The notes under the pieces are model-generated. The model was given only the letters and a program-made list of their open reading frames with translations. It was not told the origin of the DNA and made no database searches. Below, piece after piece: positions 3,374 through 63,225 of a stretch of DNA of 64,000 nucleotides. Source of the stretch: Myxococcales bacterium (GTDB taxonomy: Bacteria > Myxococcota > Myxococcia > Myxococcales > 40CM-4-68-19); contig DATBZA010000107.1 in NCBI GenBank assembly GCA_036513415.1, positions 37,773 to 101,772 of the forward strand, given 5' to 3'. The position numbers were made by a program, and so were the translations under genes. Positions within the stretch are counted from its first letter, which is position 1. Each line of letters starts with the position of its first letter.

Positions 3374-3389
3374 TGGTCCGGATGTTGCT
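3374..3389 (+). promoter_or_regulatory. candidate sigma-54 (-24/-12) promoter TGGTCC-N5-TTGCT
   Basis: GG and GC have the canonical 10-nt separation. The -12 element is TTGCT. It lies 45 nt upstream of ATG 3434, which has AAGGAG as SD. Confidence 0.35.
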
Positions 3390-5214: not shown

Positions 5215-5230
5215 TGGCACGTCGCCTGCA
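5215..5230 (+). promoter_or_regulatory. candidate sigma-54 promoter TGGCACG-N4-CTGCA
   Basis: Perfect -24 TGGCACG, -12 CTGCA, correct spacing, in an intergenic region. The predicted TSS near 5241 leaves an 18-nt leader containing GGAGGA before ATG 5259. Confidence 0.55.
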
Positions 5231-8221: not shown

Positions 8222-8315
8222 GCGCGCAGCCCAAGAGGAGTGTCTGGAGGCTGGCGGGCCGCTCACGTCCCTCACGAGCCCCGAGCATAGCCGCCGGCCT
8301 CGCACCACGCCATTC

Positions 8316-8331
8316 CGGCGCGCTCCTTGCA
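8316..8331 (+). promoter_or_regulatory. candidate sigma-54-type element CGGCGC-N5-TTGCA abutting start codon
   Basis: GG-N10-GC with a perfect -12 TTGCA. The C of GC is 14 nt from ATG 8344, with no SD in between. Confidence 0.3.
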
Positions 8332-8343
8332 CTCCTCGTCGTG

Positions 8344-8811
8344 ATGACGACACGTCCTCCGGTGCCTCCGTTCACTCAGGAATCAGCCGCTCAGAAAGTA
8401 CGATTGGCCGAAGATGGCTGGAACTCCCGCGATCCGGAGAAGGTCGCCCTGGCCTATACGCCGGATTCGCGCTGGAGGAACCGCTCGGAGTTCGTCAACG
8501 GAAGGCAGGAGATCGTCGCCTTTCTTGCGCGCAAGTGGAACAAAGAGCTGGACTATCGGCTGATCAAGGAGCTTTGGGTCTTCGGGGGACCTCGGATCGC
8601 AGTCCGCTTCGCGTATGAGTGGCACGATGACTCTGGGAATTGGTACCGCTCGTACGGCAATGAGAACTGGGAATTCGACGAGAATGGCCTGATGCGGTTG
8701 CGGCTGGCCTGCATCAATGATCTTCCCATCAGGGAATCGGACCGGAAGTATCGCTGGACCCTGGGCCGACGTCCGGATGGTCATCCGGGATTGACCGACC
8801 TTGGTCTCTAG
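8344..8811 (+). CDS. DUF1348 family (NTF2-like) protein
   Basis: The sequence [32 protein letters not shown]...WEFDENGLM matches my recollection of DUF1348. Start moved to ATG 8344. Confidence 0.75.
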
Positions 8812-8830
8812 CCCCGGCGCCGCAGCCAAC

Positions 8831-8854
8831 TCAGGGGCTACGCTTGAGCGAGGT
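8831..8854 (+). repeat. copy A of conserved 24-nt element TCAGGGGCTACGCTTGAGCGAGGT
   Basis: 23/24 identical to 34724..34747. Both copies start exactly 20 nt after the last base of a TAG stop codon. Weaker similarity extends about 20 nt on each side. Confidence 0.85.
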
Positions 8855-8886
8855 CATTCGGCAGTTCCGGTGTGAGATGCCGTTCC

Positions 8887-8902
8887 AGGCATCACTCTTG
8901 CT
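8887..8902 (+). promoter_or_regulatory. candidate sigma-54 promoter AGGCAT-N5-TTGCT
   Basis: GGCA and TTGCT with correct spacing, intergenic, about 60 nt upstream of the pal-like ATG 8961. Confidence 0.35.
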
Positions 8903-8960
8903 AGGTCCACTTGCAACCGGGCGCAGGAAAGCCGCTGTCCCCGGACTCAAGGAGTGCGCA

Positions 8961-9494
8961 ATGAAATCGATCTGGATCTTCGCTGCCGCTGTATTGGCCG
9001 CCGCTGCCTGCTCGCATGCGCAGCCGCCTCCTTCCGCCTCAACGCAGCCGGCTGTGGAAGCAGCTCCGCCCCCCGCGCCGCCCGTTCCTGCCGTGGCAGA
9101 GGAACCGGCGCCGGCTCCGCGAACCGTGGAGGTGGAGATCGTCGCAACCAGCGTCTACTTCGACTTCGACAGCTCCGAGCTGAGCCCGGAAACGCGAACC
9201 ACGCTGCAGACGTTCTTCGAGCTGGCGCGGCAGCGCCCGGACAAGGACCTTCGCATCGAGGGGAATTGCGACGAACGTGGCACGCGGGAGTACAACCTGG
9301 CGCTCGGGCAGAGGCGCGCCGATGCCGCGAAAAGCTACCTCGTGAACCTCGGCCTGGATGCATCGCGCATCACGGCGATCAGCTTCGGCAAGGAGCGGCC
9401 GCGCGCGCTCGGAGACGACGAGGCGGCCTGGAGGCAGAACCGTCGCGATGATCTGATGGCGGCAACGGAGGCCGTGAGCCAGGCGTCCCGCTGA
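8961..9494 (+). CDS. pal: peptidoglycan-associated lipoprotein (OmpA-C family)
   Basis: Lipobox LAAAAC. Pro/Ala linker. Pal signature VYFDFDSSEL...IEGNCDERGTREYNLALGQRRADAAKSYL...ISFGKERP. SD AAGGAG before ATG 8961. Confidence 0.8.
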   Translation: MKSIWIFAAAVLAAAACSHAQPPPSASTQPAVEAAPPPAPPVPAVAEEPAPAPRTVEVEIVATSVYFDFDSSELSPETRTTLQTFFELARQRPDKDLRIEGNCDERGTREYNLALGQRRADAAKSYLVNLGLDASRITAISFGKERPRALGDDEAAWRQNRRDDLMAATEAVSQASR

Positions 9495-9627
9495 GTCACG
9501 CTTGCCGCCCCTGTTTCAGTGGTCGTGCCGGGGCGACGTTGCACAGAGATCCGACACCCCATGTCGATGAATCGATCAAAGAAGGCGCTCTCTTCGAATT
9601 CTGAAGGCTTTGTGACCGCCGGGTCGT

Positions 9628-9643
9628 TGGTCCGGATCCTGCT
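9628..9643 (+). promoter_or_regulatory. candidate sigma-54-type element TGGTCC-N5-CTGCT abutting start codon
   Basis: Shares TGGTCCGGAT with the element at 3374. The C of GC is 18 nt from ATG 9660, with no SD. Confidence 0.3.
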
Positions 9644-9659
9644 TCCCTGCTGCCCTGAA

Positions 9660-10262
9660 ATGATGATCTCGCCCAAGCAGCTCGACGACTCCGTTGCGTC
9701 CGACCAGTCGCTGGCTGATCGCGCCCGGAGAGGGAGCGGGGCGGCGTTCGCCGCGCTCGCAACGCGGCACCGCGAGGCGGTGTACGCGATCACGAGGAAC
9801 ATGTGCGCGACCTCGGGCGACGCTGAAGAGGCGCTCAAGCAGGCTTTCCTTTCCGCCTGGCGCGAGCTCGCGTCCTTTCCAGCGGGTGCGAAGTTCACGA
9901 CGTGGCTGTATCGGATCGCCATGAAGACCGCATTGGCGGAGCGGCAGCGCGATCCCCGCAGGGCTTCCGGCTCGCTGGAGCCATTCCTGCCTGGTTTCGA
10001 CCGCGCAGGCCGTCTCGTCTCCAGCAACGGTCGCCGGCCCGAGCTTGACGGCAGCTCTTCGGAGCCGATTCAAATCACGGGACTGCTCCGCGAGGCGCTC
10101 GAATGCATCGACGAACAGACTCGCGGTGCATTCGTCCTGCGCGACCTTCTCCTGCTGCCGGTCGACGAGGTGGCCGCCATCCTTCAAACCTCGCCGCAGG
10201 CGGTCCGTCGAGACGCGCATCGGGCTCGCCTGATGCTCTGTGGATTCCTCAATCAGCTTTGA
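9660..10262 (+). CDS. ECF-type RNA polymerase sigma factor
   Basis: Region 2 (AFLSAWRELASFPAGAKFTTWLYRIAMKTAL) and region 4 HTH (LPVDEVAAILQTSPQAVRRDAHRAR). No adjacent anti-sigma gene is recognisable. Confidence 0.8.
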   Translation: MMISPKQLDDSVASDQSLADRARRGSGAAFAALATRHREAVYAITRNMCATSGDAEEALKQAFLSAWRELASFPAGAKFTTWLYRIAMKTALAERQRDPRRASGSLEPFLPGFDRAGRLVSSNGRRPELDGSSSEPIQITGLLREALECIDEQTRGAFVLRDLLLLPVDEVAAILQTSPQAVRRDAHRARLMLCGFLNQL

Positions 10263-10328: not shown

Positions 10329-11699
10329 TCACTCTGGGATGATCGGGCCGTACTTCTTCAACCGCTCGATGAGCGATCCGCGGCTCAGGCCCAGGCGTCG
10401 CGCGGCCTCCGACTGGTTTCCGCCGACCGCGGTCATCGTCCGGCCGATCAGGCTGCGCTCCACCGCCTCGACGTGGTCGCGGAGACTGAGCTTCCGGTCG
10501 AGCTGTCCCCCCATACCCTCTCCGCCCGTCTGAACGGTGTCCCGGGGGAGCCAGCTCTCGTCCGCCGAGAGCACCTCGGTGTCGGAGACAATCACCCACC
10601 GTTCGATCACGTTCTGTAGCTCTCGAATGTTGCCCGGCCAGGAGTACGTCCGCAGCATCTCCAGGGTCTTCTCATCCACAGCGCGCACCTTCTTCTCCGC
10701 TCGACCCGCATGGAGGCGAATGAAGTGCTCGACCAGCAGGGGGATGTCCTCTCGTCGCTCCCGCAGGGGCGGGACCTCGATGGGAAACACGTTGAGCCGG
10801 TAGAACAGGTCGCTGCGAAAGGTGCCGGCGGCAATCGCAGCCTGCAAGTCACGATTGGTGGCCGCGATCACCCGCACGTCGACCCGGATCGGTTGATTCC
10901 CGCCCACCCGCTCGAATTCGCGCTCTTGCAGGACCCGCAAGAGAGCAATCTGGGTCTCCGCGGGAAGGTCGCCGACCTCGTCCAGGAAGATCGTTCCTCC
11001 TTCCGCCAGCTCGAAACGGCCCCGGCGCTGCTGCAGCGCTCCCGTGAACGCTCCCTTCTCGTGACCGAACAACTCGGAGGCGATCAGCGAGGGCTGGATG
11101 GCGGCACAATTCACGCTGACGAGTGGTCGCGAGGACCGCTGCGACCGGCTGTGGATTGCATGCGCTACCAGCTCCTTCCCCGTCCCCGTCTCTCCCAGGA
11201 TCAGCACCGTCGATTCCGTCGGCGCGACGCTCGCCACCCGATTCAGAACCGTCTTCAACGAGGCGCTGGTGCCCACGACGCTCTCTGGAGCGTGCTTCGC
11301 AGCTTTCTTCCCCCTGTTCGGGACCTGGTAGCGGACGATCGCTTGCCGGATGGCCGCCAGCAGGGCCTCATCGTCGAAAGGCTTGGTGAAGAACTCGAAG
11401 GCTCCGGACTTCATGGCTCGCACGGACATGGGGATGTCCCCGTGACCGGTGAGAAAGATGATGGGAATCTGGAGATCGGCCTTGGCGAGCTCCTGTTGCA
11501 GATCCAGCCCGCTCAGCCCCGGCAGTCTCACATCCAGCACCAGACAGCTCGGCACCTCGTTCCGCGGCCTGACCAGGAAGTCTTGCGCCGACTTGAACGT
11601 CTCCACTCTTAGCCCCGCCGACCGGATCAGACTTGCCACGGACTCGCGCACCGCCACATCGTCATCCACGACGTAGACGGGAGGATATGTCTCGCTCAT
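10329..11699 (-). CDS. sigma-54-dependent response regulator (FixJ-type REC + AAA+ + Fis HTH)
   Basis: REC (VYVVDDD...[13 protein letters not shown]...KPF). Walker A GETGTGKE. GAFTGA loop. ESELFGHEKGAF. R-finger region. C-terminal HTH NQSEAARRLGLSRGSL. SD GAGGAAAGGTGG before ATG 11699. A GTG at 11771 would overlap the upstream stop (GTGA). Confidence 0.9.
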   Translation of the reverse strand: MSETYPPVYVVDDDVAVRESVASLIRSAGLRVETFKSAQDFLVRPRNEVPSCLVLDVRLPGLSGLDLQQELAKADLQIPIIFLTGHGDIPMSVRAMKSGAFEFFTKPFDDEALLAAIRQAIVRYQVPNRGKKAAKHAPESVVGTSASLKTVLNRVASVAPTESTVLILGETGTGKELVAHAIHSRSQRSSRPLVSVNCAAIQPSLIASELFGHEKGAFTGALQQRRGRFELAEGGTIFLDEVGDLPAETQIALLRVLQEREFERVGGNQPIRVDVRVIAATNRDLQAAIAAGTFRSDLFYRLNVFPIEVPPLRERREDIPLLVEHFIRLHAGRAEKKVRAVDEKTLEMLRTYSWPGNIRELQNVIERWVIVSDTEVLSADESWLPRDTVQTGGEGMGGQLDRKLSLRDHVEAVERSLIGRTMTAVGGNQSEAARRLGLSRGSLIERLKKYGPIIPE

Positions 11700-22820: not shown

Positions 22821-22893
22821 GTGAGCGCCAAGTATACGATGCGCACCGGCAGGATTGGATTCCGCGACGCGTGACCTGATCTTCAAGCTGGGG

Positions 22894-24132: not shown

Positions 24133-30321
<6,189 letters not shown>

Positions 30322-30342: not shown

Positions 30343-30358
30343 TGGCATGACCGTTGCT
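30343..30358 (+). promoter_or_regulatory. candidate sigma-54 promoter TGGCAT-N5-TTGCT
   Basis: Near-consensus -24/-12 match located 22 nt after the stop of the giant EBP gene. My rough base-composition estimate gives about 0.06 chance occurrences of this pattern in the whole window. The C of GC is 18 nt from ATG 30375. Confidence 0.55.
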
Positions 30359-30374: not shown

Positions 30375-30656
30375 ATGTTCAAGATCCGGAGGTCCTCTGC
30401 AGGGCGATGGGTCTTCGTGAGTGGTCGGATCGACGGAGAGGCAGTGTCCGAGTTGCAGCGCCTGTTGGGCCGGGAATCGGCAGGGAGCGGGCTGATTCTG
30501 GATCTCAAGGGAGTTCGACTCGTGGATGCGGAGGCAGTAGAGTTCTTCGCGCGTTGCGAGGACGCGGGGATCAAACTTCGGAGTTGCCCTGCGTACGTCC
30601 GCGAGTGGATCGCCAGCAGTCGGCGTCAAGCCGCACTGATCCCAGCACGGGAATGA
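30375..30656 (+). CDS. small STAS-like (anti-sigma-antagonist fold) protein, hypothetical
   Basis: 93 aa. The pattern ...LILDLKGVRLVDAEAVEFF... resembles the STAS core but lacks the conserved phosphorylatable Ser. No SD. Confidence 0.5.
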   Translation: MFKIRRSSAGRWVFVSGRIDGEAVSELQRLLGRESAGSGLILDLKGVRLVDAEAVEFFARCEDAGIKLRSCPAYVREWIASSRRQAALIPARE

Positions 30657-34835: not shown

Positions 34836-35258
34836 ATGCAGCGGCTATTCTCGACCTTTCCGGATGGGCGCCCCGGCGCAGGATTGCTGCTCTTGCGCGC
34901 GGCCGTTGGCGGCTCGCTCCTGGTCCTCGGCGGAACCTACCTCGTGCACGCGCATCAAGCCGGCGGGTGGAGCCTGGCCATCGGACTGCTGGCCGCCGCG
35001 AGCGGCGCCTCGCTGCTGATCGGATTCCTGACGCCGTTGGGCGTCCTCGCCGGCCTGGTGGCCATCGGCCTCGCCCTGGTGTGGCCGTCACCCGCCACTC
35101 GCGTCCTCCCGAACGGAAAGCTCGCCGCGCTCTTGCTGGGCGTCCTCGCTGCCGCGGTCGCCCTGTTGGGTCCCGGCGCGCTCTCCATCGACGCTCGACT
35201 GTTCGGGCGCCGCGAGATCAGCATTCCCCGCGCCCGGAACGGAGCTCCGGGAGAGTGA
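34836..35258 (+). CDS. DoxX-like small integral membrane protein
   Basis: Four hydrophobic segments. N-terminal LLLLRAAVGGSLLVLG pattern resembling DoxX. Start set to ATG 34836. Confidence 0.5.
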   Translation: MQRLFSTFPDGRPGAGLLLLRAAVGGSLLVLGGTYLVHAHQAGGWSLAIGLLAAASGASLLIGFLTPLGVLAGLVAIGLALVWPSPATRVLPNGKLAALLLGVLAAAVALLGPGALSIDARLFGRREISIPRARNGAPGE

Positions 35259-35432: not shown

Positions 35433-36563
35433 ATGAGCATCATCACGATCCGAGACGGCACGCCGGCATCCAATCTCGAGGTCCCGGTTGCCCTCGCCAA
35501 CCTGGATCTCGGGGACGAGATCGATCACGAGATCAACTTCGGCCGGATCGTCGGCAAAAGCCCTGCGCTGCGGCGCGTGCTCAAGCAGATCGAGACGGTG
35601 AGCGGCACGGTCAGCACGGTCATCCTCGAGGGCGAGACCGGGACCGGCAAGGAACTGTTCGCCCAGGCCATCCATGATCTCAGCGGCCGGCGTTCGGGCC
35701 CGTTCGTGAAGCTGAACTGTTCAGCGATTCCCAGCGGTCTTCTGGAAAGCGAGCTCTTCGGGCACGAGAAGGGAGCGTTCACGAGCGCCTCCGCTCAACG
35801 CGTCGGACGTTTCGAGCTGGCGAATGGCGGAACCATCTTCCTCGACGAAGTCGGCGAGCTCTCGCTCGAGCTGCAGCCGAAGCTCCTCCGGGTGCTTCAG
35901 GAAAGGGAATTCGAGCGTCTGGGCGGCGCGCGCACCCTGCGTACCGACATCCGGGTGATCGCGGCGACGAACCGCGACCTGAGAACGATGGTCGAGCGGG
36001 GGATGTTCCGGTCCGATCTCTTCTACCGTCTGAACGTCTTTCCCGTCCGGGTCCCCGCGCTTCGAGACCGGCCGGAGGACATTCCTCTTCTGGTCCGGTC
36101 CTTCGCCGACGAGTTTTCGCGGCGCATGAACAAATCGTTCGAGGCCATTCCCTGCTCGACCATGAGAGAACTGTGCCGGCACCCCTGGCCGGGCAACATC
36201 CGGGAGCTCCGGAACGTCGTTGAGCGCGCGGTCATCCTCTCGTCCGGTCCGGTCCTCGAAATCGACATCGCCGACATGAACGCTCGCAAATCGCCGATGC
36301 GCAGGGCAGACAGCAGGGTCGAGGCGTTCCCGTTGAGAAGACTTCGCGACGAACTGGATGACGCCCAACGCGATGTGATCCTCGGCGCGCTGAGGCAAGC
36401 GGATGGGCGTGTCGGAGGACCCGATGGTGCCGCAGCAAGGCTTGGTCTGAAGCGTACGACACTCATCGGCCGCATGAAGCGGCTCGGTATCGAGTCTCAC
36501 TCGCGAGATGGAAAGTCTTATGGGACCTCTCAACCAGACCTGTCAAAGACGATCGCTTCTTGA
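35433..36563 (+). CDS. sigma-54 enhancer-binding protein without N-terminal sensor domain (PspF/HrpR-like layout), GAFTSA loop variant
   Basis: Only about 45 aa precede the AAA+ core. Walker A GETGTGKE. ESELFGHEKGAFTSA at 35770-35787 (Ser replaces the second Gly of GAFTGA). HTH AAARLGLKRTTLIGRMKRLG. SD GGAGAG before ATG 35433. Confidence 0.85.
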   Translation: MSIITIRDGTPASNLEVPVALANLDLGDEIDHEINFGRIVGKSPALRRVLKQIETVSGTVSTVILEGETGTGKELFAQAIHDLSGRRSGPFVKLNCSAIPSGLLESELFGHEKGAFTSASAQRVGRFELANGGTIFLDEVGELSLELQPKLLRVLQEREFERLGGARTLRTDIRVIAATNRDLRTMVERGMFRSDLFYRLNVFPVRVPALRDRPEDIPLLVRSFADEFSRRMNKSFEAIPCSTMRELCRHPWPGNIRELRNVVERAVILSSGPVLEIDIADMNARKSPMRRADSRVEAFPLRRLRDELDDAQRDVILGALRQADGRVGGPDGAAARLGLKRTTLIGRMKRLGIESHSRDGKSYGTSQPDLSKTIAS

Positions 36564-36691: not shown

Positions 36692-36707
36692 TGGCCGAGC
36701 ACTTGCA
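36692..36707 (+). promoter_or_regulatory. candidate sigma-54 promoter TGGCCG-N5-TTGCA
   Basis: Correct spacing and a perfect -12 TTGCA, in an intergenic region. It lies 129 nt after the sensor-less EBP gene and 15 nt (C of GC to A of ATG) before the first gene of the glycogen/PPP cluster. Confidence 0.5.
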
Positions 36708-36720
36708 ACCCTCGCTGGCC

Positions 36721-37350
36721 ATGAGCGACGCACTTCCTGTCGTTTACCTGGCGAGGCACGGCGAGACCGCCTGGACCATCTCAGGTCAGCACACAGGGGC
36801 GACCGATCTACCGCTGACCGCACAGGGTGAAGCCGAGGCCGTCCGGCTCGCAGAGCCGCTCGCGGGATTGACGTTCGCCGCGGTGTTCACGAGTCCGTTG
36901 CAGCGGGCGGTCCAAACGTGCGAGCTGGCTGGCTTCGGCCCTGTGGCCGAAGTCGAGCCTGACCTCGTCGAATGGAACTACGGCACGTACGAAGGTCGCA
37001 CCAGCGCCGAGATTCGCGCCGAGCGCCCTGGCTGGCAAGTGTTCCGCGATGGTTGCCCGGGAGGGGAGTCGCCAGCGCAGATCGGAGCACGAGCCGACCG
37101 GGTGGTACGCCGGATGCGAGCAATCGAAGGGAACGTCCTGCTCTTTTCGAGCGGGCATATCCTCCGGGTGTTCGCCGCGCGCTGGCTTGGGCTCGAACCG
37201 GGGACGGGCAGGTACTTCCTGCTCGGCACGGCCAGTCTCAGCGCGTTGGGATACGAGCATGATCGCTCCGAGCCGGTTATCCGTCTCTGGGACGAGAGGC
37301 CTCACGAACGGCGCGTCACCAAGGGGCAGGTATCGGGCACCGGGAGGTAG
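36721..37350 (+). CDS. histidine phosphatase superfamily protein (phosphoglycerate-mutase-like)
   Basis: N-terminal catalytic motif VYLARHGETAW. Later LFSSGHILR (second His). Confidence 0.8.
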   Translation: MSDALPVVYLARHGETAWTISGQHTGATDLPLTAQGEAEAVRLAEPLAGLTFAAVFTSPLQRAVQTCELAGFGPVAEVEPDLVEWNYGTYEGRTSAEIRAERPGWQVFRDGCPGGESPAQIGARADRVVRRMRAIEGNVLLFSSGHILRVFAARWLGLEPGTGRYFLLGTASLSALGYEHDRSEPVIRLWDERPHERRVTKGQVSGTGR

Positions 37351-37351
37351 C

Positions 37352-39886
37352 ATGGCGATGAGCGAAAAAAGGGTGGCGGTTCTTCGAGCAGGGGTGCCGG
37401 TTCTTCGAACAGGAGCAGCCTCGGACACCTTGGAGGCGCTGCGCTGGCAATACGGATGCGGTCCGGTGGACCTCACGGGCACCGCCGATGCGCTCTATGA
37501 GCGGCACCTGCTCTTCGACAACGTCGCCGATCCCGCGGCCGCCGGGACGCGTGAGCGCTACGAGGCCCTCGCGCGCTCCGTCCGGGACGTCCTCTCGCAG
37601 CGATGGGTCCGGACGGAGCAGACCTACGAGAGCTTGAACCCCAAGCGCGTCTACTACCTGTCGATGGAGTTCCTGATCGGCCGCTCGCTGTCCAACAACA
37701 TCACGAATCTGCTGCTCAGTCCCTTCCTGAGCGAAGCCGTCAAGCAGAGATCCCTGGATTGGCTTGGCCCGCTCGAAGAGGAACCCGACGCCGCCCTGGG
37801 AAACGGCGGCCTCGGGCGTCTGGCTGCGTGCTTCCTCGATTCGATGGCCACCCTGCAGTTGCCGGCGATGGGGTACGGGCTCCGGTACGAGTACGGAATG
37901 TTCCGGCAATCCATCCAAGACGGTTGGCAACACGAGCAGCCCGACAACTGGCTTCGTCGCCCCGACCCGTGGGAGGTCGCGCGTCCCGACGACAAGGTCG
38001 AGATCGAGCTGAACTGCTCGTTCGAGGTCCGGGGAGGGGCGCTGAGCGCGATCCTGGGAAGGCCATCCAAGCTGATCGGCATTCCGTTCGATCGGCCCGT
38101 GGTGGGCTATGGCGGCAAGACGATCAACACGCTGCGCCTCTGGGCGGCGCGCGCGGGCGATTACTTCGATTTCCAGGCGTTCAGCCATGGCGACTTCGTC
38201 GCCGCGCTGGCCGAAACGCTCGCGGCCGAGTCTCTCACGCGGGTCCTCTATCCCGACGACTCCACCACCCAGGGGCAGGGGCTGCGGTTCGTGCAGGAGT
38301 ACTTTCTCGTCGCCTGCTCACTCGCCGATCTGATCCGGCGATTTCGCCGCACCAACGCGGACTGGGGTGCGCTTCCCGACAAGGCCGCCATCCAGCTCAA
38401 CGATACCCACCCGTCAATCGCCGTTCCCGAGCTGATGCGGCTCCTGCTCGACGAGGCTCACCTCGGATGGGACCAGGCCTGGGACCTCACCCAACGTACG
38501 CTGGCGTATACGAACCACACGCTGCTGCCCGAGGCGCTGGAAAAATGGCCGCTGGCGTGGTTCGAGACGCTGCTCCCTCGCCACCTCGAGATCATCCTCG
38601 AGATCAACCGGCGATTGCTCGATGCGGTCCGGCGCCGCTTTCCCGGCGACGAGGGCCGTGTGGGACGCACGAGCCTGATCGAAGAAGGCCCGAGCAAACA
38701 CGTCCGCATGGCCAACCTCGCCATCGTGGGCTCGCACAGCACCAACGGCGTGGCGGCGATTCACTCCGCGCTGCTGCGCTCGAACACGGTGAGGGACCTG
38801 GCCGAGACGTTTCCCGAGCGTTTCGGCAACAAGACCAATGGCGTCACGCCGCGGCGCTGGCTGCTGCTCTCGAACCCGGCGCTGGCCAGGACCATCACTG
38901 AAAGCATCGGCGAAGACTGGATCGCCGACCTCGGCCAGCTTGCCAGGCTCAAGCCGCTCGCCGACGACTCGAGCTTCCGCGACGCGTTCCGCTCCACCAA
39001 GCGAGCGGCCAAGTCCGCCTTCGCGGAGTGGCTCCGAGCGAGCTCGGGGCAGACGGTGGATCCCGATACCATCTTCGACAGCCAGGTGAAGCGCATCCAC
39101 GAATACAAGCGGCAGCTTCTCAACGCGTTGCGGATCGTCGTGCTCTACAACCGCTTGCGGGAGGACCCGACGCTGCAGACGACGCCGCGGACTTTCCTGT
39201 TCGCCGGCAAGGCGGCGCCGGCGTACCATCTGGCCAAGCTCATCATCAAGCTCCTGAACAACCTCGCCGGGACCATCGACGCCGATCCGTCGGTGCGTGG
39301 GAGGCTCAAGGTGATGTTCCTCCCCGAGTACTCCGTGTCCCTGGCCGAGCGGTTGATTCCAGCCACCGATGTCTCCAACCAGATCTCGACCGCCGGCTAC
39401 GAGGCGAGCGGCACCAGCAACATGAAGTTCATGATGAACGGCGCGCTGACGATCGGCACCCGCGACGGCGCGACGATCGAGATGGCGCAGGAGGCCGGGG
39501 AGGAGAACTTCTTCCTCTTTGGCCTGACGGCGGAGCAGGTTGCCGGCAGCCGCGGCTGGTACAACCCGCGCTGGCACTACGACAACCAGCCGGAGATCCG
39601 CGCGGCGCTGGACCTGATCTTCTCCGATCACTTCAGCCGCAATGAGCCCGGCGTGTTTGCGCCGCTGCGCGACACGCTGCTGACGAGCGACCATTACATG
39701 CACCTCGCGGACCTCGGATCCTATCTCGAGGCCGATCGCAGCCTCTGCGCGCTATACGCAGACCCGGAAGCATGGGCGCGCAAGGCCATCCTGAACGTGG
39801 CCAGCTCCGGGAAGTTCTCCAGCGACCGCACCATTGCCGAGTACGCGGCCGACATCTGGCACGTCAGTCCGTGTCCGGTGCCGTGA
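37352..39886 (+). CDS. glgP: glycogen/maltodextrin phosphorylase
   Basis: [34 protein letters not shown]-lysine region [32 protein letters not shown] before ATG 37352. Confidence 0.95.
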
Positions 39887-39947
39887 AGGAGCCGCGCAGC
39901 GACGACGCCGTCCTGGACAAGGCAAGCTGACAGGAAAGGGGAAACCG

Positions 39948-41591
39948 ATGACGAGAATGCTGCCACTGACCGCGCGTCAATCGTGGAAGGCGCTCCAGAC
40001 CCACCAGGAGAAGATCCGGGAGGTGCACCTCCGCACGCTCTTCGACGACGACCCGACGCGCGGCGAGCGCTTCACCGCGGAGGCGGCCGGAATCCATCTC
40101 GACTACTCCAAGAATCGCGTCACGGACGAGACCCTGGCGCTGCTCCGCCGGCTGGCCGAGGAGTCCGGCCTGCGCGAACGCATCGATGCCATGTTCCGGG
40201 GAGACAAGATCAACCTGACGGAAAACAGATCCGTCCTGCATGTCGCCCTGCGCGCCCCGCGCGGCAAGGCGATCGTCGTGGACGGCAAGGACGTGGTGCC
40301 CGACGTCCACGCCGTGCTCGGCGCGATGACCGACTTCTCCAATCGGGTGCGGAGCGGCGCGTGGAAGGGGCACACCGGCAAGCGCATTCGCAACGTGGTC
40401 AACATCGGCATCGGCGGCTCAGACCTCGGCCCCGTGATGGCCTACGAGGCGCTCAAGCACTACAGCGATCGCGCGATGGCCTTTCGCTTCGTCTCGAACG
40501 TAGATGGGACCGATCTGGTGGAGGCGACCCGCGACCTGGACCCTGCGGAGACGCTCTTCATCGTTTCCTCGAAGACCTTCACCACGCTGGAAACGATGAC
40601 CAACGCCGAGAGCGCGCGCCAGTGGTTGCTCAAGGAGCTCGGCGGAGACGTCAAGGCGGTGTCCAAGCATTTCGTCGCCGTCTCCACCAACGCCAAGAAG
40701 GTCTCGGAGTTCGGCATCGACACCGCGAACATGTTTGGATTCTGGGACTGGGTGGGCGGGCGCTATTCGATGGACTCGGCGATCGGTCTGTCGACGATGC
40801 TCGCCGTCGGTCCCGAGAATTTCCGCGCTCTGCTGGATGGCTTCCACCAGATGGACGAGCACTTCCGCACCGCCCCATTCGAGCGCAACCTGCCGGTGCT
40901 CCTCGGCCTGTTGACGGTGTGGTACGCGGATTTCTTCGACGCCGAGACGGTGGCCGTGCTGCCCTACGAGCAATACCTGAAGCGTTTCCCCGCCTACCTG
41001 CAGCAGCTGGCGATGGAAAGCAACGGCAAGCACGTCACCCGCGAGGGAGACGAGATCAGCTATCCGACCGGGCCCATCTACTGGGGCGAGCCGGGAACAA
41101 ACGGGCAGCACTCGTTCTACCAGCTGATCCATCAAGGCACCCGTCTCATTCCCTGCGACTTCATTGCCTTCTCCGAAACGCTGAATCCGCTCGGCCGCCA
41201 CCACGACATGCTGCTCGCGAACGTGTTCGCGCAGACCGAGGCGCTGGCCTTCGGGAAGACGCGCGAGCAGGTGAAAGCGGAAGGAACGGCGGACAGCCTC
41301 GTTCCCCATCGCGTATTCAAGGGGAACCGCCCGTCGAACACCATCCTCGCCGAGCGGCTGACGCCGGAGACCCTTGGCAAGCTGGTCGCGCTCTACGAGC
41401 ACAGCGTGTTCACCCAGGGCATGATCTGGGACGTCGACTCCTTCGATCAGTGGGGAGTCGAGCTGGGCAAGGTGCTGGCCCAGCGGATCATCCCGGAGCT
41501 CGAGAGCGAGACGGAGCCCGCGCTCCGTCACGACAGCTCGACGAACGCGCTCATCCGGCGCTACCGGACGCGCAAGGGCGCCGTGCGATGA
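39948..41591 (+). CDS. pgi: glucose-6-phosphate isomerase
   Basis: [28 protein letters not shown]..., [17 protein letters not shown] motifs. Confidence 0.95.
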
Positions 41592-42490
41592 CCGGGATGG
41601 CCCAGTTCACGCAGCAGCTGCAGAGGATGAAAACGGATCCCGGGTTCATCGCGGCGCTGGATCAAAGCGGTGGGAGCACGCCCGGCGCGCTGCGCGCTTA
41701 CGGAATCAAGGAAGGCGCGTGGTCCAACGACGAGGAGATGTTCGCGCTCGTGCATCAGATGCGCACGCGCATCATCACCAGCCCGTCCTTCACCGGCGAG
41801 CGGATCCTCGGCGCCATCCTCTTCGAGAACACCATGGACAGGGACATCGAGGGACAGCCGACCGGGGATTACCTGTGGAACGTGAAACGGGTCGTGCCCT
41901 TCCTGAAAGTCGACAAGGGCCTGGCAGCGGAGAAGGACGGTGTCCAGTTGATGAAGCCGATACCCGGGCTCGCCGCGCTGCTCGACAAGGCCAAGACGAA
42001 GCGCATCTTCGGAACCAAGATGCGCTCGTTCGTCAAGCAAGCCAACCGAGCGGGCATCCAAGGCATCGTGACCCAGCAGTTCGAGGCTGCCCGGCAGATC
42101 ACCGCCGCGGGCCTCGTGCCGATCGTCGAGCCGGAAGTGGACATTCACTGTCCAGAAAAGGCCGAGGCCGAGGAGTTGCTCAAAGGGGCCATCCTCGAGA
42201 AGCTCGACGGACTGCCCGAGGGCCAGCTCGTCATGCTGAAGATCACCTTGCCGGAGAAAGACGACTTCTACAGCGAGTTCGTCAGCCATCCCAAGGTGGT
42301 GAGGGTGGTTGCGCTTTCTGGCGGTTACACGCGGGAAGAAGCCAACGAGCGCTTGCGGAGGAACCACGGCGTCGTGGCGAGCTTTTCACGGGCGCTGGTC
42401 GAGGGGTTGTCCGCCCCGCAATCCGACGCAGAGTACGACGCCCGGCTGGATGCAGCCGTTCGGAGCATCTTCGAGGCGTCCAACACTTGA
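41588..42490 (+). CDS. fba: class I fructose-bisphosphate aldolase
   Basis: [29 protein letters not shown] (Schiff-base Lys region). ATG overlaps the pgi stop (ATGA). Confidence 0.85.
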
Positions 42491-42531
42491 AGCGAAGCCG
42501 CCGAGCAATCGGCCTTGAAAAGGAGTGAGCG

Positions 42532-43566
42532 ATGCAACTCGGAATGATCGGACTTGGTCGCATGGGCGCGAACATGGCCCGGCGGCTTCTTGCAGGCGGC
42601 CACCGATGCGTGGTCTTCAGCAGGTCGGCGAACGCGGTCGAGGAGTTGAGTCGGGCCAAGGCGGTCGGCGCCTCGTCTCTGGCCGATCTCGTGAAGAAGC
42701 TGGAGACGCCGCGGGCCATCTGGCTGATGGTCCCGGCGGCAGCCGTGGACGCGACCGTCAGCGACCTTTTGCCCCATCTCGCGCCTGGCGACATCATCAT
42801 CGATGGCGGGAATTCCTATTACGTCGACGACATCCGGCGCGCGAAGGAGCTTGCGGAGAAGGGCATCCACTACGTGGACGTCGGGACCAGCGGCGGAGTC
42901 TGGGGACGGGAGCGCGGGTACTGCCTGATGATCGGCGGCGAGGATGCGGTGGTGAAACACCTCGATCCCATCTTCGCGCAATTGGCGCCCGGCGCCGGCG
43001 ACATCCCCCGCACTCCGGGGCGGGAAGCCATCCGCGGCACGGCCGAGCAGGGATACCTGCACTGCGGACCGAACGGCGCCGGCCATTTCGTCAAGATGGT
43101 GCACAACGGAATCGAGTACGGCGTCATGGCCGCTTACGCCGAGGGACTGGGCATCTTGCGGAACGCCAACGTCGGAAAGCGAGAACACGCGGTCGACGCC
43201 GAGACCACGCCGCTGCGGGCCCCGGAGCGCTACCAGTACGACCTCGACCTTCGCGACATCACCGAGGTCTGGCGGCGCGGCAGCGTCATCGCTTCGTGGC
43301 TGCTCGATCTGACGGCAGCCGCCCTGATCAAGGATCCCGCGCTGTCGGAGTTCTCGGGCCGGGTCTCGGACTCGGGCGAGGGACGGTGGACGATCAACGC
43401 GGCCATCGACGAGGCGGTGCCGGCGCCCGTGCTGTCCGCCGCCCTCTATCAGCGGTTCAGCTCACGCGGCGAGGCGGACTTTCAAGACCGCGTCCTGTCC
43501 GCCCTGCGGTACCAGTTCGGCGGACACCTGGAGAAGCCCGGCGGCAGCGGCGGGAGCTCACGATGA
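42532..43566 (+). CDS. gnd: 6-phosphogluconate dehydrogenase, decarboxylating (short-chain type)
   Basis: [19 protein letters not shown] Rossmann N-terminus. [16 protein letters not shown] signature. AAGGAG SD. Confidence 0.9.
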
Positions 43567-44945
43567 GCGACGCCCGTTCGGATGCCCTGGTGTTCTTCGG
43601 CGCGACGGGCGACCTGGCGTTCAAGAAGATCTTTCCGGCACTGCAGGCGATGGTGAAACGCGGCCATCTCAACGTGCCGATCATCGGCGTGGCGAAGGCG
43701 GGCTGGGGCGTCGACGAGCTCCGCGCCCGCGCGCGCGACAGCGTCAAGCAGCACGGCGGGCTGGATGCCGCGGCGTTCGACAAGCTGTCTCGACTGCTGC
43801 GCTATGTGGACGGCGACTACCGGGACGCGGCGACGTTCCAGGCCATTCGCCAGCAACTCGGTTCCGCTCAGCGCCCCGTCCACTACCTCGCCATCCCGCC
43901 CACGCTGTTCGGGCCGGTCGTGGAACAGCTCAACCGGTCAGGCTGCGCGAAAGGCGCTCGCATCATCGTCGAGAAGCCGTTCGGCGGCGATCTCTCCTCG
44001 GCGCAGGAACTCAACCGCACGCTGCTCGGCTCCTTCGACGAGAGGACGATCTTTCGCATCGACCATTACCTCGGCAAACGGCCGGTGCATCACATGTTGT
44101 TTTTCCGGTTTGCGAACCCGTTCATGGCGCCTTTCTGGAACAGGAATGACGTCGAGAGCGTCCAGATCACGATGGCCGAGGAGTTCGGGATCCAGGGAAG
44201 GGGCGCCTTCTACGACGAGACGGGCACCGTGCGCGATGTGGTGCAGAACCACCTGTTCCAGGTGCTGACCAACCTGGCCATGGAGCCTCCGGTCAGGACC
44301 GACAGCCAATCCATCCGAGACGAGAAGGTGAAAGTCCTCGAGGCGATCCCGGCCCTCGTCCCGGACAACGTCGTGCGCGGACAGTTTCGCGGTTATCGAT
44401 TGGAGAAGGGAGTGGCGGCGGATTCGCAGGTGGAAACGTTCGTCGCCATGCGCCTCCAGATCGACTCCTGGCGCTGGCAGGGCGTGCCCTTCTACATCCG
44501 GGCCGGAAAGTGCCTGCCCGTGACGTGCACGGAGATCGTCATCCGGCTCCGCCGGCCTCCCACGATCTTTCAAGGCTTCCACCTCGACTCGAACTACTGC
44601 CGCTTCCGGATCAGTCCCGACGTTACGCTCGCCCTCGGCGCGAACGTGATCGCGCCGGGACAGGAGACGCGCAGCCAGACCGCGGAAATGGTGGGGACCC
44701 AGCTCCCTGGCGCGGACGAAATGGATGCTTACGAGCGGGTCCTGGGAGACGCGATGGAGGGCGATTCCACGCTGTTCGCGCGGGAGGACTACGTCGAAGA
44801 AGCGTGGCGAATCGTCGATCCGGTGCTGAAGGTCGGCACACCCGTCTACGAATACGAGCCAGGAACCTGGGGACCAAAAGAGGTCGACTCTAAAGTCTCG
44901 CCCCCCGGAGGCTGGCAGAACCCTCCGCTGTCGGGAAGGGCGTAA
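43563..44945 (+). CDS. zwf: glucose-6-phosphate 1-dehydrogenase
   Basis: [46 protein letters not shown] overlaps the gnd stop (ATGA). Confidence 0.95.
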
Positions 44946-44958
44946 GCGGAGCGGACGC

Positions 44959-47055
44959 TTGCAGGACGATGCGAGCAGCAGGGGACGAAGCGCGCCTCTG
45001 GGAGCGACGCCCTGTGACGGCGGCGTCAACTTCAGCGTCTACTCGCGCGGAGCCACCGGCGTGGAGTTGCTGCTCTTCGACCGGGAGAACGATGCACGCG
45101 CGACCCGGGTCATCCCGCTCGACCCCGCGGCGAATCGGACTTACCACTACTGGCACGTCTTCGTGTCGGGCATTCGGCAGGGCCAGATGTACGGGTATCG
45201 CATGCACGGAGCGTGGGACCCCGCGAGCGGGATGCGCTTCGACCCGACCAAGGTGCTCCTCGATCCCTATGGCCGAGGCGTCGTGGTTCCGAAGAGCTAC
45301 AGCCGCGAAGCGGCGTGCGGGGAAACCGACACCGCCGCGTCGGCGATGAGGAGCGTCGTGGCCGACGTTTCCGCGTACGACTGGGAGGGCGATGTCCCGC
45401 TGCAACGGCCGTCGTCGCGGACCATCATCTACGAGATGCACGTGAGAGGGTTCACGTGCCATCCCAGCTCCGGGGTTTCGGAACAAAAGCGGGGGACCTA
45501 CGCCGGCGTGGTCGAGAAGATTCCCTATCTCCAGCAGCTGGGCATCACCGCCGTCGAGTTGCTGCCGGTGTTCCAGTTCGACGCCCAGGATGCTCCGCTC
45601 GGACGGATCAACTACTGGGGATATGCGCCGATCTCGTTCTTTGCGCCGCACCACGCCTACAGCTCCGGTCAGGATCCGCTCGCCCCGATCGACGAGTTCC
45701 GCGACATGGTGAAGGCGCTCCACCGCGCAGGGATCGAGGTCATTCTCGACGTCGTGTTCAACCACACCGCGGAAGGCGACCACCGCGGACCGACGCTGAG
45801 CTTCCGCGGACTGGACAACGCCACATACTACATCCTCGAAGAGGATCACTCACGCTACGCCAATTACAGCGGCACGGGGAATACGCTGAACGCCAATCAT
45901 CCGATCGTGCGCCGGATGATCGTGGACTGCCTCCGGTACTGGGTGGAGACGATGCACGTCGACGGGTTCCGCTTCGACCTCGCGTCGATCCTGGCGCGCG
46001 ATTCGTCGGGCCAGGTGATCCCGAATCCGCCGGTGCTGTGGGACATCGAGTCGGAGCCGGCGCTGGCGGGGACGAAGCTCATCGCTGAAGCATGGGATGC
46101 AGTTGGTCTGTACCAGGTGGGGACCTTCGTCGGGGACAGTTGGAAGGAATGGAACGGACGCTTCCGCGACGACGTCCGCAGCTTCTTCCGCGGCGACGAA
46201 GGCTCCATCGGCGCGTTTGTCGACCGGTTCATCGGCAGCCCGTCGTTGTACGGCCACAAGGAGCGCGAGATCGAGGAAAGCATCAACTTTGTCACGTCTC
46301 ACGATGGCTTCACCCTCAACGATCTCGTCTCCTACGACCGCAAGCACAACGAAGCGAACGGCGAGGACAACCGGGACGGCGCCGACGACAACCGAAGTTG
46401 GAACTGTGGAGTGGAAGGCCCGACGGAAGATCCCGCGGTCGACAAGCTGCGAACGCGACAGGTGAAGAACTTCTTCACCGTGACGATGCTCTCCGGGGGG
46501 ATGCCCATGATGCTCATGGGCGACGAAGTGCGGCGTACGCAGGGCGGCAACAACAACGCCTATTGTCAGGACAACGAGACCAGCTGGTTCGACTGGACCC
46601 TGCTCGCGAAGCGGGCCGACGTGCTCCGGTTCGTGAGCTTGCTCAATGCTCGCCGGGTCTTGCGAGACGTCGAGCACGAGCGGCAGCGGGTAGCCCTGAA
46701 CCAACTGATCCGCCAGGCCGACCTGACCTGGCACGGCGTGAGACTCCACGAACCTGACTGGGGTCACGACTCGCACAGCGTGGCTTTCACGACGAAGTTC
46801 GCGAACGAACCAGGTCTCTTTCACATCATTCTCAATGCGTACTGGGAACCGCTCGAATTCGAGCTGCCGCCGGCCGCCGGCGGCGCCGGACATCCATGGC
46901 ACCGATGGATCGACACCTTTCTCGACTCTCCGCACGATATCGCTGATTGGGAGCGGGCACCCTTGGTTTCCGGCGACAGCTATCGGGCGGAACGCCGGTC
47001 CGTGGTGGTGCTGTTCGCGGGCGTCGAACCGGCTCCTACTGCAACGCCGACGTGA
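44959..47055 (+). CDS. glgX: glycogen debranching enzyme (isoamylase-type)
   Basis: PLGATPCDGGVNFSVYS, YEMHVRGFT, GYAPISFFAP, VILDVVFNHT, DGFRFDLAS, IAEAWD, FVTSHDGFTL. TTG 44959 start is uncertain. Confidence 0.9.
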   Translation: MQDDASSRGRSAPLGATPCDGGVNFSVYSRGATGVELLLFDRENDARATRVIPLDPAANRTYHYWHVFVSGIRQGQMYGYRMHGAWDPASGMRFDPTKVLLDPYGRGVVVPKSYSREAACGETDTAASAMRSVVADVSAYDWEGDVPLQRPSSRTIIYEMHVRGFTCHPSSGVSEQKRGTYAGVVEKIPYLQQLGITAVELLPVFQFDAQDAPLGRINYWGYAPISFFAPHHAYSSGQDPLAPIDEFRDMVKALHRAGIEVILDVVFNHTAEGDHRGPTLSFRGLDNATYYILEEDHSRYANYSGTGNTLNANHPIVRRMIVDCLRYWVETMHVDGFRFDLASILARDSSGQVIPNPPVLWDIESEPALAGTKLIAEAWDAVGLYQVGTFVGDSWKEWNGRFRDDVRSFFRGDEGSIGAFVDRFIGSPSLYGHKEREIEESINFVTSHDGFTLNDLVSYDRKHNEANGEDNRDGADDNRSWNCGVEGPTEDPAVDKLRTRQVKNFFTVTMLSGGMPMMLMGDEVRRTQGGNNNAYCQDNETSWFDWTLLAKRADVLRFVSLLNARRVLRDVEHERQRVALNQLIRQADLTWHGVRLHEPDWGHDSHSVAFTTKFANEPGLFHIILNAYWEPLEFELPPAAGGAGHPWHRWIDTFLDSPHDIADWERAPLVSGDSYRAERRSVVVLFAGVEPAPTATPT

Positions 47056-52459: not shown

Positions 52460-52475
52460 TGGCACGTCCGCTGCA
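52460..52475 (+). promoter_or_regulatory. candidate sigma-54 promoter TGGCACG-N4-CTGCA
   Basis: TGGCACGTCCGCTGCA is nearly identical to TGGCACGTCGCCTGCA at 5215. Intergenic, upstream of the TolC-adaptor-RND operon. Confidence 0.5.
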
Positions 52476-52496: not shown

Positions 52497-53828
52497 ATGG
52501 TCAACCCACCCAAGCGAACGCTGCACTGCATGGCACCTCTTGCTCTGCTGCTCCTCCTGGCCCCCCGGGCCTCGATGGCCCTGCAATCGCTCGAGGTATT
52601 TGCGGCCGGAGCGCGCCAACGGAATCCGGCTGCTCTCGAAGCGCGCGCGAATCTTCGCGAGAGGGGTGCGGAAGCGGATGTCGCGCTGGGCCGCGTGCTG
52701 CCGGGCATTTCGTTCGACGGCAGGTACGCCCGGAACCAGTACAGCAGTGAGATCGATCTCGGCGCCCTCGGTGGTCCCAACCGGACGATCGTGCTGCTCC
52801 CCAAGAACCAGTGGAACGGCACCGCAACGGCGACCGTGCCGCTGGTGGACCTGGCCAACTTCCAGCGCATCGGAGCGGCAAGGACGGAGGCCGAAGCGGC
52901 CGCGCGCCAGCTGGAGGCGACGCGCCTGGAGGTCGAGGCCCAGGTCGCGCAATCGTACTACCAGCTCGTCGCGAGCGTAGCGTTGGTCGCAGCCTCGACC
53001 GAGGCGCTCGAGGTGTCGCGCGAGGGCTTGCGCCTGGCGGAGGAACACTACCGCGCCGGCACTGCAGCCAGTCTGGAGACGTCCCGGGCGCGCGCCGAGG
53101 TCGAGCAGCGCGTCCAGCAGGTGGCGTCCGCGGAGTTGCAGGTTGCCCTGGCGGCCCGCGCGCTGCTTTCCGGTTCGGGCGTGGACCCCGACCTGTCGAG
53201 CTCGGTCGAGCTCGACTTCGACGCGCGTCCCGAGCCGCCGCTGTCGGACTTCGAAAGGAGCCTTGCAAGCGTTCCCGCTGTCCTCGCGGCCGCGCTCACG
53301 ACGCGCGCCGCCGAACAGCTCTCCACTGCGCAGCGGCTCACGCTGGCTCCATCGATCGCAGGGTATTTCGCCGAGACCGGTTCCAATGCCGCTGGCTTCG
53401 TCGGGCGTGACTGGAGCTACCAGGCGGGGATCACGCTGACGTGGTCGCTCGACCTCACGACCTTCGCCAACATCCGCAGGCAGGATGCGATCCTGGACGC
53501 TGAGCGGGCCCGCGAGCTTCGCACCTGGCTGTCTTCGGGCGACGCCATCCACCAGCAGTGGAACACGGTGGCCGCCGGAATCGCCAAGAGCCGCGCGGCG
53601 CGAGCGGGAGGGCGAGCGGCTTTCCAGGCCGCCGCGCAAGCGCGAAGCCGATATGCCGTGGGGAACATCGCGCAGCTCGATCTGCTGCAAGCGCAGCGGG
53701 ACGCTTTCACCGCCGACGTGAACCGCATCCAGGCCGACGCCGAGCTCGCGAACGCGCGGGCCCAGCTTCGCCTCGCTGCCGGCCGGAGCCTTGTCGAATC
53801 AACCAACGAAAGGAATGCGCTGCCATGA
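52497..53828 (+). CDS. TolC-family outer membrane efflux protein
   Basis: Signal peptide. Two repeats of the TolC coiled-coil/beta pattern (NP.L..A...........GRVLPGISF...). ATG 52530 is an alternative start. Confidence 0.85.
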   Translation: MVNPPKRTLHCMAPLALLLLLAPRASMALQSLEVFAAGARQRNPAALEARANLRERGAEADVALGRVLPGISFDGRYARNQYSSEIDLGALGGPNRTIVLLPKNQWNGTATATVPLVDLANFQRIGAARTEAEAAARQLEATRLEVEAQVAQSYYQLVASVALVAASTEALEVSREGLRLAEEHYRAGTAASLETSRARAEVEQRVQQVASAELQVALAARALLSGSGVDPDLSSSVELDFDARPEPPLSDFERSLASVPAVLAAALTTRAAEQLSTAQRLTLAPSIAGYFAETGSNAAGFVGRDWSYQAGITLTWSLDLTTFANIRRQDAILDAERARELRTWLSSGDAIHQQWNTVAAGIAKSRAARAGGRAAFQAAAQARSRYAVGNIAQLDLLQAQRDAFTADVNRIQADAELANARAQLRLAAGRSLVESTNERNALP

Positions 53829-63209: not shown

Positions 63210-63225
63210 CGGCACGAAACTAGCG
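63210..63225 (+). promoter_or_regulatory. candidate sigma-54-type element CGGCAC-N5-TAGCG abutting start codon
   Basis: GGCAC at -24 and GC at -12 with correct spacing. The C of GC is 17 nt from ATG 63241. Confidence 0.3.

Follow-up and report, generated by a model that had tools for sequence, protein, structure and literature searches.

Sigma-54-type promoter elements lie close to Shine-Dalgarno-less start codons in a Myxococcales lineage and may give near-leaderless mRNAs

The DNA analyzed here, called the window below, is a 64,000-nt stretch of a Myxococcales contig (DATBZA010000107.1, positions 37,773 to 101,772) with a G+C content of 65%, whose gene map was drawn from GC3-biased open reading frames, Pfam matches, and independent gene calls on matching contigs. 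It carries sigma-54-type −24/−12 elements directed at genes for a DUF1348 protein, an extracytoplasmic function (ECF) sigma factor, a STAS-domain protein, a histidine phosphatase, and an outer-membrane efflux protein, in each case with the −12 GC 14 to 23 nt before an AUG lacking a Shine-Dalgarno (SD) sequence. From the sequence we consider it probable, with a good measure of doubt, that these conserved elements are used as promoters giving near-leaderless mRNAs. In what follows, d is the distance in nt from the C of the −12 GC to the A of the start ATG, motif scores from a sigma-54 weight matrix are in bits, and an SD is GGAG, GAGG, or AGGA within the last 20 nt before the start. Relatives with 72 to 96% protein identity, labelled as loci L093 to L185, served for comparison; near-identical metagenome contigs were uninformative, and over the first 18.8 kb of the window a soil-metagenome contig of 131 kb differs from it at only 5 positions. 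The original prediction had named five elements, at d = 14 (gene 8344), 15 (36721), 17 (63241), 18 (9660), and 18 (30375), and all five were recovered where it had placed them. All listed elements lie in sense orientation upstream of a gene, with exactly 10 nt between GG and GC.

At the DUF1348 locus, the DUF1348 (NTF2-like) gene (8344..8811, plus strand, as are all features below unless stated otherwise; Pfam DUF1348, E = 3e-67) starts with an ATG without an SD, and the element CGGCGCGCTCCTTGCA (8316..8331; d = 14; 8.2 bits), which reads CGGCGCG-CTCC-TTGCA, precedes it. Five distinct relatives have the form CGGCGCG-(CTCC/CGAT/TCAC)-TTGCA, always at d = 14 and with 12 of 12 core positions invariant, in surroundings where all 4 spacer bases and 6 of the 12 leader positions vary and the 20 nt upstream are scrambled. 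DUF1348 orthologues of several phyla open with MTTRPP(L/V)PPF, which supports the ATG at 8344. Scanning positions 8150 to 9700 for sigma-70-like promoters and for terminators returned nothing. In one relative (L173:3860-4355, and L174 at the same coordinates), DUF1348 is a pseudogene with a ~60-codon internal deletion and a frameshift, and the −24/−12 element is retained at 14 nt. Between the DUF1348 gene and a divergent histidine kinase gene lies a block (8244..8292; ctggaggctggcgggccgCTCACGtccCTCACGagccccgagcatagcc) that is near-invariant in relatives, contains a CTCACG direct repeat, and is followed by 20 variable nt. This block may be bound by an activator or a response regulator; it may instead be the promoter of the kinase gene or, if the kinase starts at GTG 8266 or 8275, encode the kinase N terminus.

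The next gene downstream with an element at short distance encodes an ECF sigma factor of 200 amino acids (9660..10262; Pfam Sigma70_r2 and r4_2), again with an ATG and no SD, and the element TGGTCCGGATCCTGCT (9628..9643; 11.0 bits) stands at d = 18. Convergent with it is a response-regulator-type sigma-54 activator, or enhancer-binding protein (10329..11699, minus strand; Pfam Response_reg, Sigma54_activat, and HTH_8; GAFTGA loop), and the pairing of the two genes is conserved in L173 to L180. In relatives with 72 to 83% protein identity, the 16-mer is 94 to 100% identical at d = 17 to 18 and keeps the form TTGGTCCGGATC(C/T)TGCT, with 40 to 50% identity in the 30 nt upstream and 17 to 42% in the leader. 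The automated gene call places the start at 9561, which would bury the conserved element in coding sequence; we prefer 9660 because most homologues (55 to 87% identity, full coverage) are 199 to 201 amino acids long. An ECF-type autoregulated promoter of the sigma gene was considered and dropped, no conserved AAC/CGT pattern being visible by eye in the aligned relatives. The −24 half of this element, TGGTCCGGAT (TGGTCC rather than TGGCAC), is unusual and common to three promoters: this one, that at 3374..3389 (see below), and one on the minus strand of L105 near 17229. Their spacer is conserved as well, which suggests from sequence a sub-class that perhaps shares one activator or overlaps the site of another factor.

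The top match of the window, TGGCATGACCGTTGCT (30343..30358; 17.6 bits), lies at d = 18 before a gene for a STAS-domain, anti-sigma antagonist-like protein of 93 amino acids (30375..30656; weak Pfam STAS_2 match; ATG, no SD). It is located in the 53-nt gap after a giant activator gene that ends 22 nt before the element. Two relatives (L094 and L096) keep TGGCATGATCGTTGCT at d = 18 with the 30 nt upstream only 33 to 37% identical, and across three lineages the form TGGCATGA(C/T)CGTTGCT is retained at 18 nt. The STAS start agrees with an independent gene call, and homologues of 89% and 48% identity share the N terminus from residue 1. The giant gene (24133..30321; start codon uncertain, product ~2060 to 2116 amino acids) encodes Ser/Thr kinase, AAA_16, GAF, and PAS domains together with a sigma-54 activator domain with a GAFTGA loop (Pfam); its AAA_16 part is STAND-like, and the whole would be an unusual single-polypeptide signalling route to sigma-54.

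The histidine phosphatase gene (36721..37350; Pfam His_Phos_1 from residue 8; ATG, no SD) is preceded at d = 15 by TGGCCGAGCACTTGCA (36692..36707; 11.3 bits), and directly upstream of this promoter lies a sigma-54 activator gene (35433..36563; Pfam Sigma54_activat, E = 2.5e-70) whose product, like PspF, has no N-terminal sensor domain. The element is identical in L095, and unrelated sigma-54 motifs are found in L144 (d = 15; 15.9 bits) and in L112 and L118 (d = 14), so that three unrelated sequence contexts before this gene hold short-distance motifs (d = 14 to 15). In other relatives the motifs lie at d = 21 to 22 or 46 to 173 nt, the long-distance ones mostly with a GGAG SD near the ATG. The start ATGAGCGAC (MSDALP) is shared by ~75 relatives despite unrelated upstream DNA, and no downstream start is possible because the catalytic RHG motif occupies residues 12 to 14. 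GTG-started orthologues have an SD-like GGAG or lie behind an upstream gene, and the short-distance motif occurs in none of them. Histidine phosphatase is the first gene of an apparent operon (36721..47055) that continues with glycogen phosphorylase, glucose-6-phosphate isomerase (Pgi), an unknown open reading frame, a 6-phosphogluconate-dehydrogenase-like protein (Gnd), glucose-6-phosphate dehydrogenase (Zwf), and glycogen debranching enzyme (GlgX). Since the candidate sigma-54 promoter heads this operon, glycogen breakdown into the pentose-phosphate pathway may be sigma-54-controlled.

Other arrangements occur ahead of the same operon in relatives. In L098 to L104, L143, L157, and L170 to L172 (e.g., L170:1420-1466), a strong SD (GGAGGAGG) is followed by an upstream open reading frame of ~14 codons with a TTG or GTG start, and in L098 to L104 its stop overlaps the main ATG (..CCATGAGC). 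The sequence is suggestive of translational coupling or of a leader peptide; the arrangement is absent from the window's own histidine phosphatase locus. In L111, ~68 nt upstream of the histidine phosphatase start, lies a sigma-54 motif (CGGCATGGTCCGTGCA) that is followed after 17 nt by an in-frame ATG 17 codons before MSDALP; this ATG could be an alternative short-leader start of an N-terminally extended protein.

A further short-distance element, which the original prediction had not listed, is TGGCACGTCCGCTGCA (52460..52475; 14.7 bits) at d = 23 before the SD-less outer-membrane efflux protein gene (52497..53828), the first of an OEP-HlyD-RND operon (Pfam OEP, HlyD, and ACR_tran). The motif is 94 to 100% identical in L111 (d = 20) and L144 (d = 16), with leaders that differ in length and sequence, and the protein N terminus is conserved as M-x-N-x-P-(K/R)-R. 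Efflux orthologues alone thus span 16 to 23 nt; the values in the other families are 14, 15, 17 to 18, and 18. Half-sites and their position are selectively conserved at 8316, 9628, 30343, and 52460, as they are at the long-leader elements 5215 and 8887, and in none of these footprint-supported promoters is d below 14. All window and footprint-supported short-distance cases use ATG.

Doubt attaches to the fifth of the predicted elements, CGGCACGAAACTAGCG (63210..63225; 8.4 bits; d = 17 to ATG 63241), whose promoter-start geometry is uncertain. Its GG-N10-GC is retained in L105 (6.8 bits), which says little because conservation there extends over the entire 45-nt block. Homologues of this protein, searched for among 1.84 billion representatives, start at the equivalent of residue 6 (MPSER...), i.e., at GTG 63256; on this sequence comparison the gene probably starts there, 15 nt downstream, which would make d 32. 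Two weaker cases had also been proposed, and the one at 34836 does lie at 20 nt; the other, at 51141, lies at 22 rather than 21 nt, and both score below 6 bits. On the minus strand (22820-22846), the efflux adaptor gene has, as described earlier, a TATACT 10 nt before its SD-less ATG at 22820 and may be a sigma-70-type leaderless case.

Promoter distance and SD usage go together in the window. The leaders behind the five predicted elements and both weak cases contain no GGAG, GAGG, or AGGA, in line with what had been said of them, and the six short-distance genes are all ATG-started and SD-less. SD counts are 0 of 6 for the short-distance genes, 4 of 4 for the long-distance genes, and 11 of 19 for the motif-less starts; by a hypergeometric hand calculation, the chance of all six short-distance genes being SD-less is ~0.006. 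The long-distance genes 5259, 8961, 3434, and 47162 have d = 30 to 62 and GGAGG- or AAGGAG-type SDs, and the split between the two layouts on which the original prediction had remarked extends to the relatives, where short SD-less and long SD-bearing forms both recur. Three of the long-leader elements are TGGCACGTCGCCTGCA (5215..5230; 15.5 bits; d = 30), with a GGAGG SD before the DUF4136 gene 5259; AGGCATCACTCTTGCT (8887..8902; 13.3 bits; d = 60), with an AAGGAG SD before the OmpA-like gene 8961; and TGGTCCGGATGTTGCT (3374..3389; 12.4 bits; d = 46), with an AAGGAG SD before the PQQ beta-propeller gene 3434. In L175 and L176, the DUF4136 orthologue is preceded by TGGCACATCGTGTGCA at d = 54 and has an SD, and the promoter of the OmpA-like gene is conserved at d = 60 in L173, L180, L184, and L185.

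For the 29 uncoupled gene starts of the window, we counted sense-strand matches of correct spacing scoring at least 8 bits. Such a match occurs in 11 of the 29 upstream regions, and 6 of these lie 13 to 23 nt from the ATG. Dinucleotide shuffles gave means of 0.83 regions overall and 0.14 at 13 to 23 nt (0.30 regions at a threshold of 10 bits), and the observed counts were reached in 0 of 1,000 shuffles. Wrong spacer lengths yielded 0 to 3 matches versus 11 with the correct spacing, none of them at 13 to 23 nt, and the antisense strand of the 29 regions had 0 matches of at least 8 bits. Over both strands (128 kb), the top matrix matches fall in intergenic DNA and are aimed at genes. Among ~745 kb of relatives, clustered by family, correctly spaced intergenic matches at open reading frame starts are ~3 times as frequent as wrong-spacing controls, in the short and the long class alike. 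The same scan of ~600 kb of proteobacterial and acidobacterial loci gave no excess of short distances over the spacing controls; matches of at least 14 bits in these comparators lie at 23 to 101 nt, and only one is below 33 nt. Two further counts were set aside, a strict set of unambiguous starts, in which promoter matches were too few to be informative, and a pooled annotation-free histogram of ATG offsets, in which an excess at 13 to 22 nt was contaminated by repeated homologous loci. Searches for a TANNNT hexamer ~5 to 10 nt before the ATG found none upstream of the five predicted genes and no positional enrichment near starts over 134 start families, and an Rfam scan of the whole window returned no element.

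The window also holds sigma-54 machinery. Three genes contain a Sigma54_activat domain, two with a GAFTGA loop and one with GAFTSA, and a candidate promoter follows immediately after the end of two of these genes. Taken with the spacing-specific enrichment and the conservation footprints, these adjacent activator genes make it very probable that the elements are real sigma-54 promoters. Because the GC of such promoters lies at about −12, leaders of 2 to 6 nt are predicted for d = 14 to 18 and of ~11 nt for d = 23. The start codons of four of the five predicted genes are right, so that transcripts from these promoters would carry only very short SD-less leaders. Sigma-54 promoters with very short SD-less leaders are accordingly the part of the original prediction that we retain; strict leaderlessness, which it had also entertained, does not fit the spread of d from 14 to 23 nt, and "very short leader" (2 to 11 nt predicted from the sequence) is the safer description.

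A mechanism may be proposed on this basis. The sigma-54 RNA polymerase would bind the −24/−12 element as a closed complex, which a nearby enhancer-binding ATPase would open. Transcription would begin ~11 to 13 nt past the C of the GC and place the mRNA 5′ end 0 to 6 nt before the AUG of the DUF1348, histidine phosphatase, ECF sigma, and STAS genes and up to ~11 nt before that of the efflux gene. Initiation would then occur at the 5′-proximal AUG in a leaderless-like, SD-independent manner, because such leaders are too short to hold an SD. Transcripts reading through from upstream would be poorly translated, since the same AUG would be internal and SD-less there, and expression would therefore be strictly gated by the activator. 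More tentatively, and at somewhat less than even chances in our estimation, a large share of this lineage's sigma-54 promoters, perhaps about half, may be built for leaderless or near-leaderless mRNAs, with the A of the AUG at least 14 nt from the −12 C and activator gating tied to a 5′-end-dependent, SD-independent translation that ignores read-through.

Several observations weigh against promoters for near-leaderless mRNAs. A sharply fixed promoter-start distance was not found: d spreads over 14 to 23 nt, unlike in classical leaderless genes, and the spread implies predicted leaders of up to 11 nt, for which SD-less translation lacks an explanation. In relatives, SD-like strings occur in three short-distance candidates (L108, L106, and the efflux gene of L144), where they follow the −12 element but would still lie upstream of the predicted transcription start. 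In L093, L094, and L096, the histidine phosphatase site reads GG-N8-GC through a two-base deletion. The DUF1348 gene is spread across phyla, and its GTDB orthologues outside this lineage use AAGGAG SDs and lack the motif; we took them as confirmation of the start codon but as uninformative on the promoter. As for the machinery, the activator at 35433 has a GAFTSA rather than a GAFTGA loop, rpoN itself is not in the 64-kb window, and a search upstream of five promoters for inverted-repeat enhancer sites gave nothing convincing.

The variable distance would also fit a different use of real sigma-54 sites, namely that the genes are expressed mainly from upstream promoters, with longer leaders and internal SD-independent initiation, and that the bound inactive holoenzyme chiefly forms a roadblock or poised complex beside the start codon. 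Ordinary leaders must support SD-independent initiation here, because many first genes (1492, 8221, 12872, 22820, 23904, and 30814) have neither an SD nor a sigma-54 motif, and an SD-like string is found in only ~1/3 of the 134 start families. Read-through is also possible from the upstream genes close behind which the STAS and 63241 elements stand. Against expression from upstream stand the orientation of the elements, always toward the gene and with no antisense matches; the adjacent activator genes; the lack of any sigma-70-like promoter found upstream of 8344 or 9660; and the fact that no footprint-supported d falls below 14 nt, as expected if this promoter transcribes the AUG. Relatives with longer distances acquire an SD, and leader length from this promoter is therefore linked to the mode of translation. 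Such an upstream origin of the transcripts appears unlikely to us.

Less probable still is that some short distances reflect misassigned starts, the true ones lying downstream behind normal leaders. The homologues of 63241, which begin M-P-S-E-R at the equivalent of GTG 63256 (d = 32), speak for such an error, as do the disagreements of automated callers over 9660 (9561) and 34836 (34737) and their extension of DUF1348 to 167 to 237 amino acids in relatives. However, the callers' alternatives are upstream extensions that bury the promoter in coding sequence, the RHG motif of the histidine phosphatase leaves no room for a downstream start, and at 8344, 36721, 30375, 52497, and 9660 the proposed ATG is the very point from which the protein is conserved, with unrelated or variable DNA upstream. 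Conserved N termini or homologue lengths thus uphold four of the five starts assumed in the original prediction (8344, 36721, 30375, and 9660), and the fifth, 63241, is probably to be replaced by GTG 63256. Upstream extension of SD-less genes by automated callers recurs (8125-8343 and 9561-9659 in the window; proteins P0275 to P0279 and locus L185), giving DUF1348 proteins of 167, 200, or 237 amino acids and ECF sigma factors of 231 to 233 amino acids, and appears to be an annotation artefact that is systematic in the lineage.

We give the least weight to the notion, improbable in our view, that the elements are chance GC-rich matches or sites of another factor and that their conservation reflects recent common ancestry. 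The weight matrix is an approximation of the published consensus; the elements at 8316 and 63210 reach only ~8 bits, and those at 34836 and 51141 stay below 6 bits and gain no backing from relatives. Conservation of the ECF 16-mer extends to its spacer, which sigma-54 by itself would not need. The bare GG-N10-GC motif occurs at 14 to 21 nt in 6 of the 29 uncoupled starts versus ~2.2 expected; this enrichment, put at seven versus about three in the original hand estimate, is only marginal because the 22- to 29-nt and 30- to 37-nt windows score about as high (6 and 5). Over the 134 start families from relatives, the bare motif shows no clear peak, and we discarded it as a test. The ~3-fold matrix excess in relatives is modest, and the homologous loci behind it are not independent. 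The matrix counts in the window, by contrast, are far above chance in both shuffles and spacing controls, and the enrichment is specific to the correct spacing and the sense strand. The halves are invariant where spacer and flanks vary, in agreement with the sigma-54 consensus; the histidine phosphatase gene repeatedly has motifs at the same short distance in upstream contexts that are not homologous; and activator genes are adjacent. On this evidence we retain probable sigma-54 promoters with predicted very short SD-less leaders.

In several respects the elements resemble canonical sigma-54 promoters such as glnAp2, pspA, and nifH: GG and GC are 10 nt apart in a TGGCAC-N5-TTGCW-like consensus, in sense orientation upstream of operons, with Sigma54_activat AAA+ activators bearing GAFTGA nearby, and the window also has ordinary examples at d = 30 to 62 with an SD. 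Unlike these, its short class has d = 14 to 23, a predicted leader of 0 to 11 nt, and no room for an SD; the characterized sigma-54 promoters known to us have leaders of at least 20 nt with an SD. To our knowledge, the promoters linked with leaderless and short-leader mRNAs have until now been of the −10 type. Those in which the −10 box adjoins the open reading frame occur in Actinobacteria and in lambda cI. They are also described in Deinococcus-Thermus (PMC12340547), and a leaderless mRNA has been defined by a 5′ untranslated region (5′ UTR) of at most 5 nt (definition quoted in PMC12754779). As in such sigma-70-type systems, a promoter element in the window abuts an SD-less AUG, the predicted 5′ UTR is within or near that limit, and gene callers misplace the starts; unlike in them, the promoters are of the sigma-54 type and would be activator-dependent, no TANNNT lies close to these ATGs, and the distance is spread over 10 nt rather than sharply fixed. 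Bacteroidetes and cyanobacteria offer a further comparison, SD-independent initiation on leadered mRNAs; the likeness is that many genes of this lineage are SD-less and that translation must tolerate the absence of SD/anti-SD pairing. Here, however, SD absence correlates with promoter distance, and long-leader genes use GGAGG.

A related system concerns insulation encoded within sigma-54 promoters, which bioRxiv 10.1101/086108 associates with short CT-rich motifs. The likeness is the idea that sigma-54 promoter regions limit protein made from read-through, and the short leaders of the window are also C/T-rich; the difference is that the window genes have no SD, and any insulation would come from the AUG being 5′-proximal only in promoter-initiated transcripts. 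The original prediction had held that leaderless expression from sigma-54 promoters was undescribed, and full-text literature searching did not contradict it: no description of sigma-54-driven leaderless transcripts was found, the S. meliloti RpoN promoter table, which possibly lists single cases, being covered only in part. The transcription start mapping papers on Bradyrhizobium, Leptospira, and Sinorhizobium and a Myxococcus sigma-54 study yielded leaderless transcripts with sigma-70-type promoters only. The parts, namely sigma-54 promoters, enhancer-binding proteins, and leaderless or SD-less translation, are thus known, and their combination is new as far as literature searching showed.

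If the proposal is true, this would be a sigma-54 architecture unreported in any organism, and an activator-dependent, mechanistically distinct promoter would join the promoter classes that make leaderless messages. It would imply an unusual tolerance of the ribosome for leaders of 2 to 11 nt. The motif-to-ATG rule could correct misplaced SD-less starts in annotations and could assign sigma-54 regulons, for which the glycogen/pentose-phosphate operon, the ECF sigma factor, the STAS protein, and the efflux pump are candidates. A promoter silent until activated, joined to an AUG translatable only at the 5′ end, would make expression immune to read-through, and for this uncultured soil lineage it would be the first promoter and translation rule.

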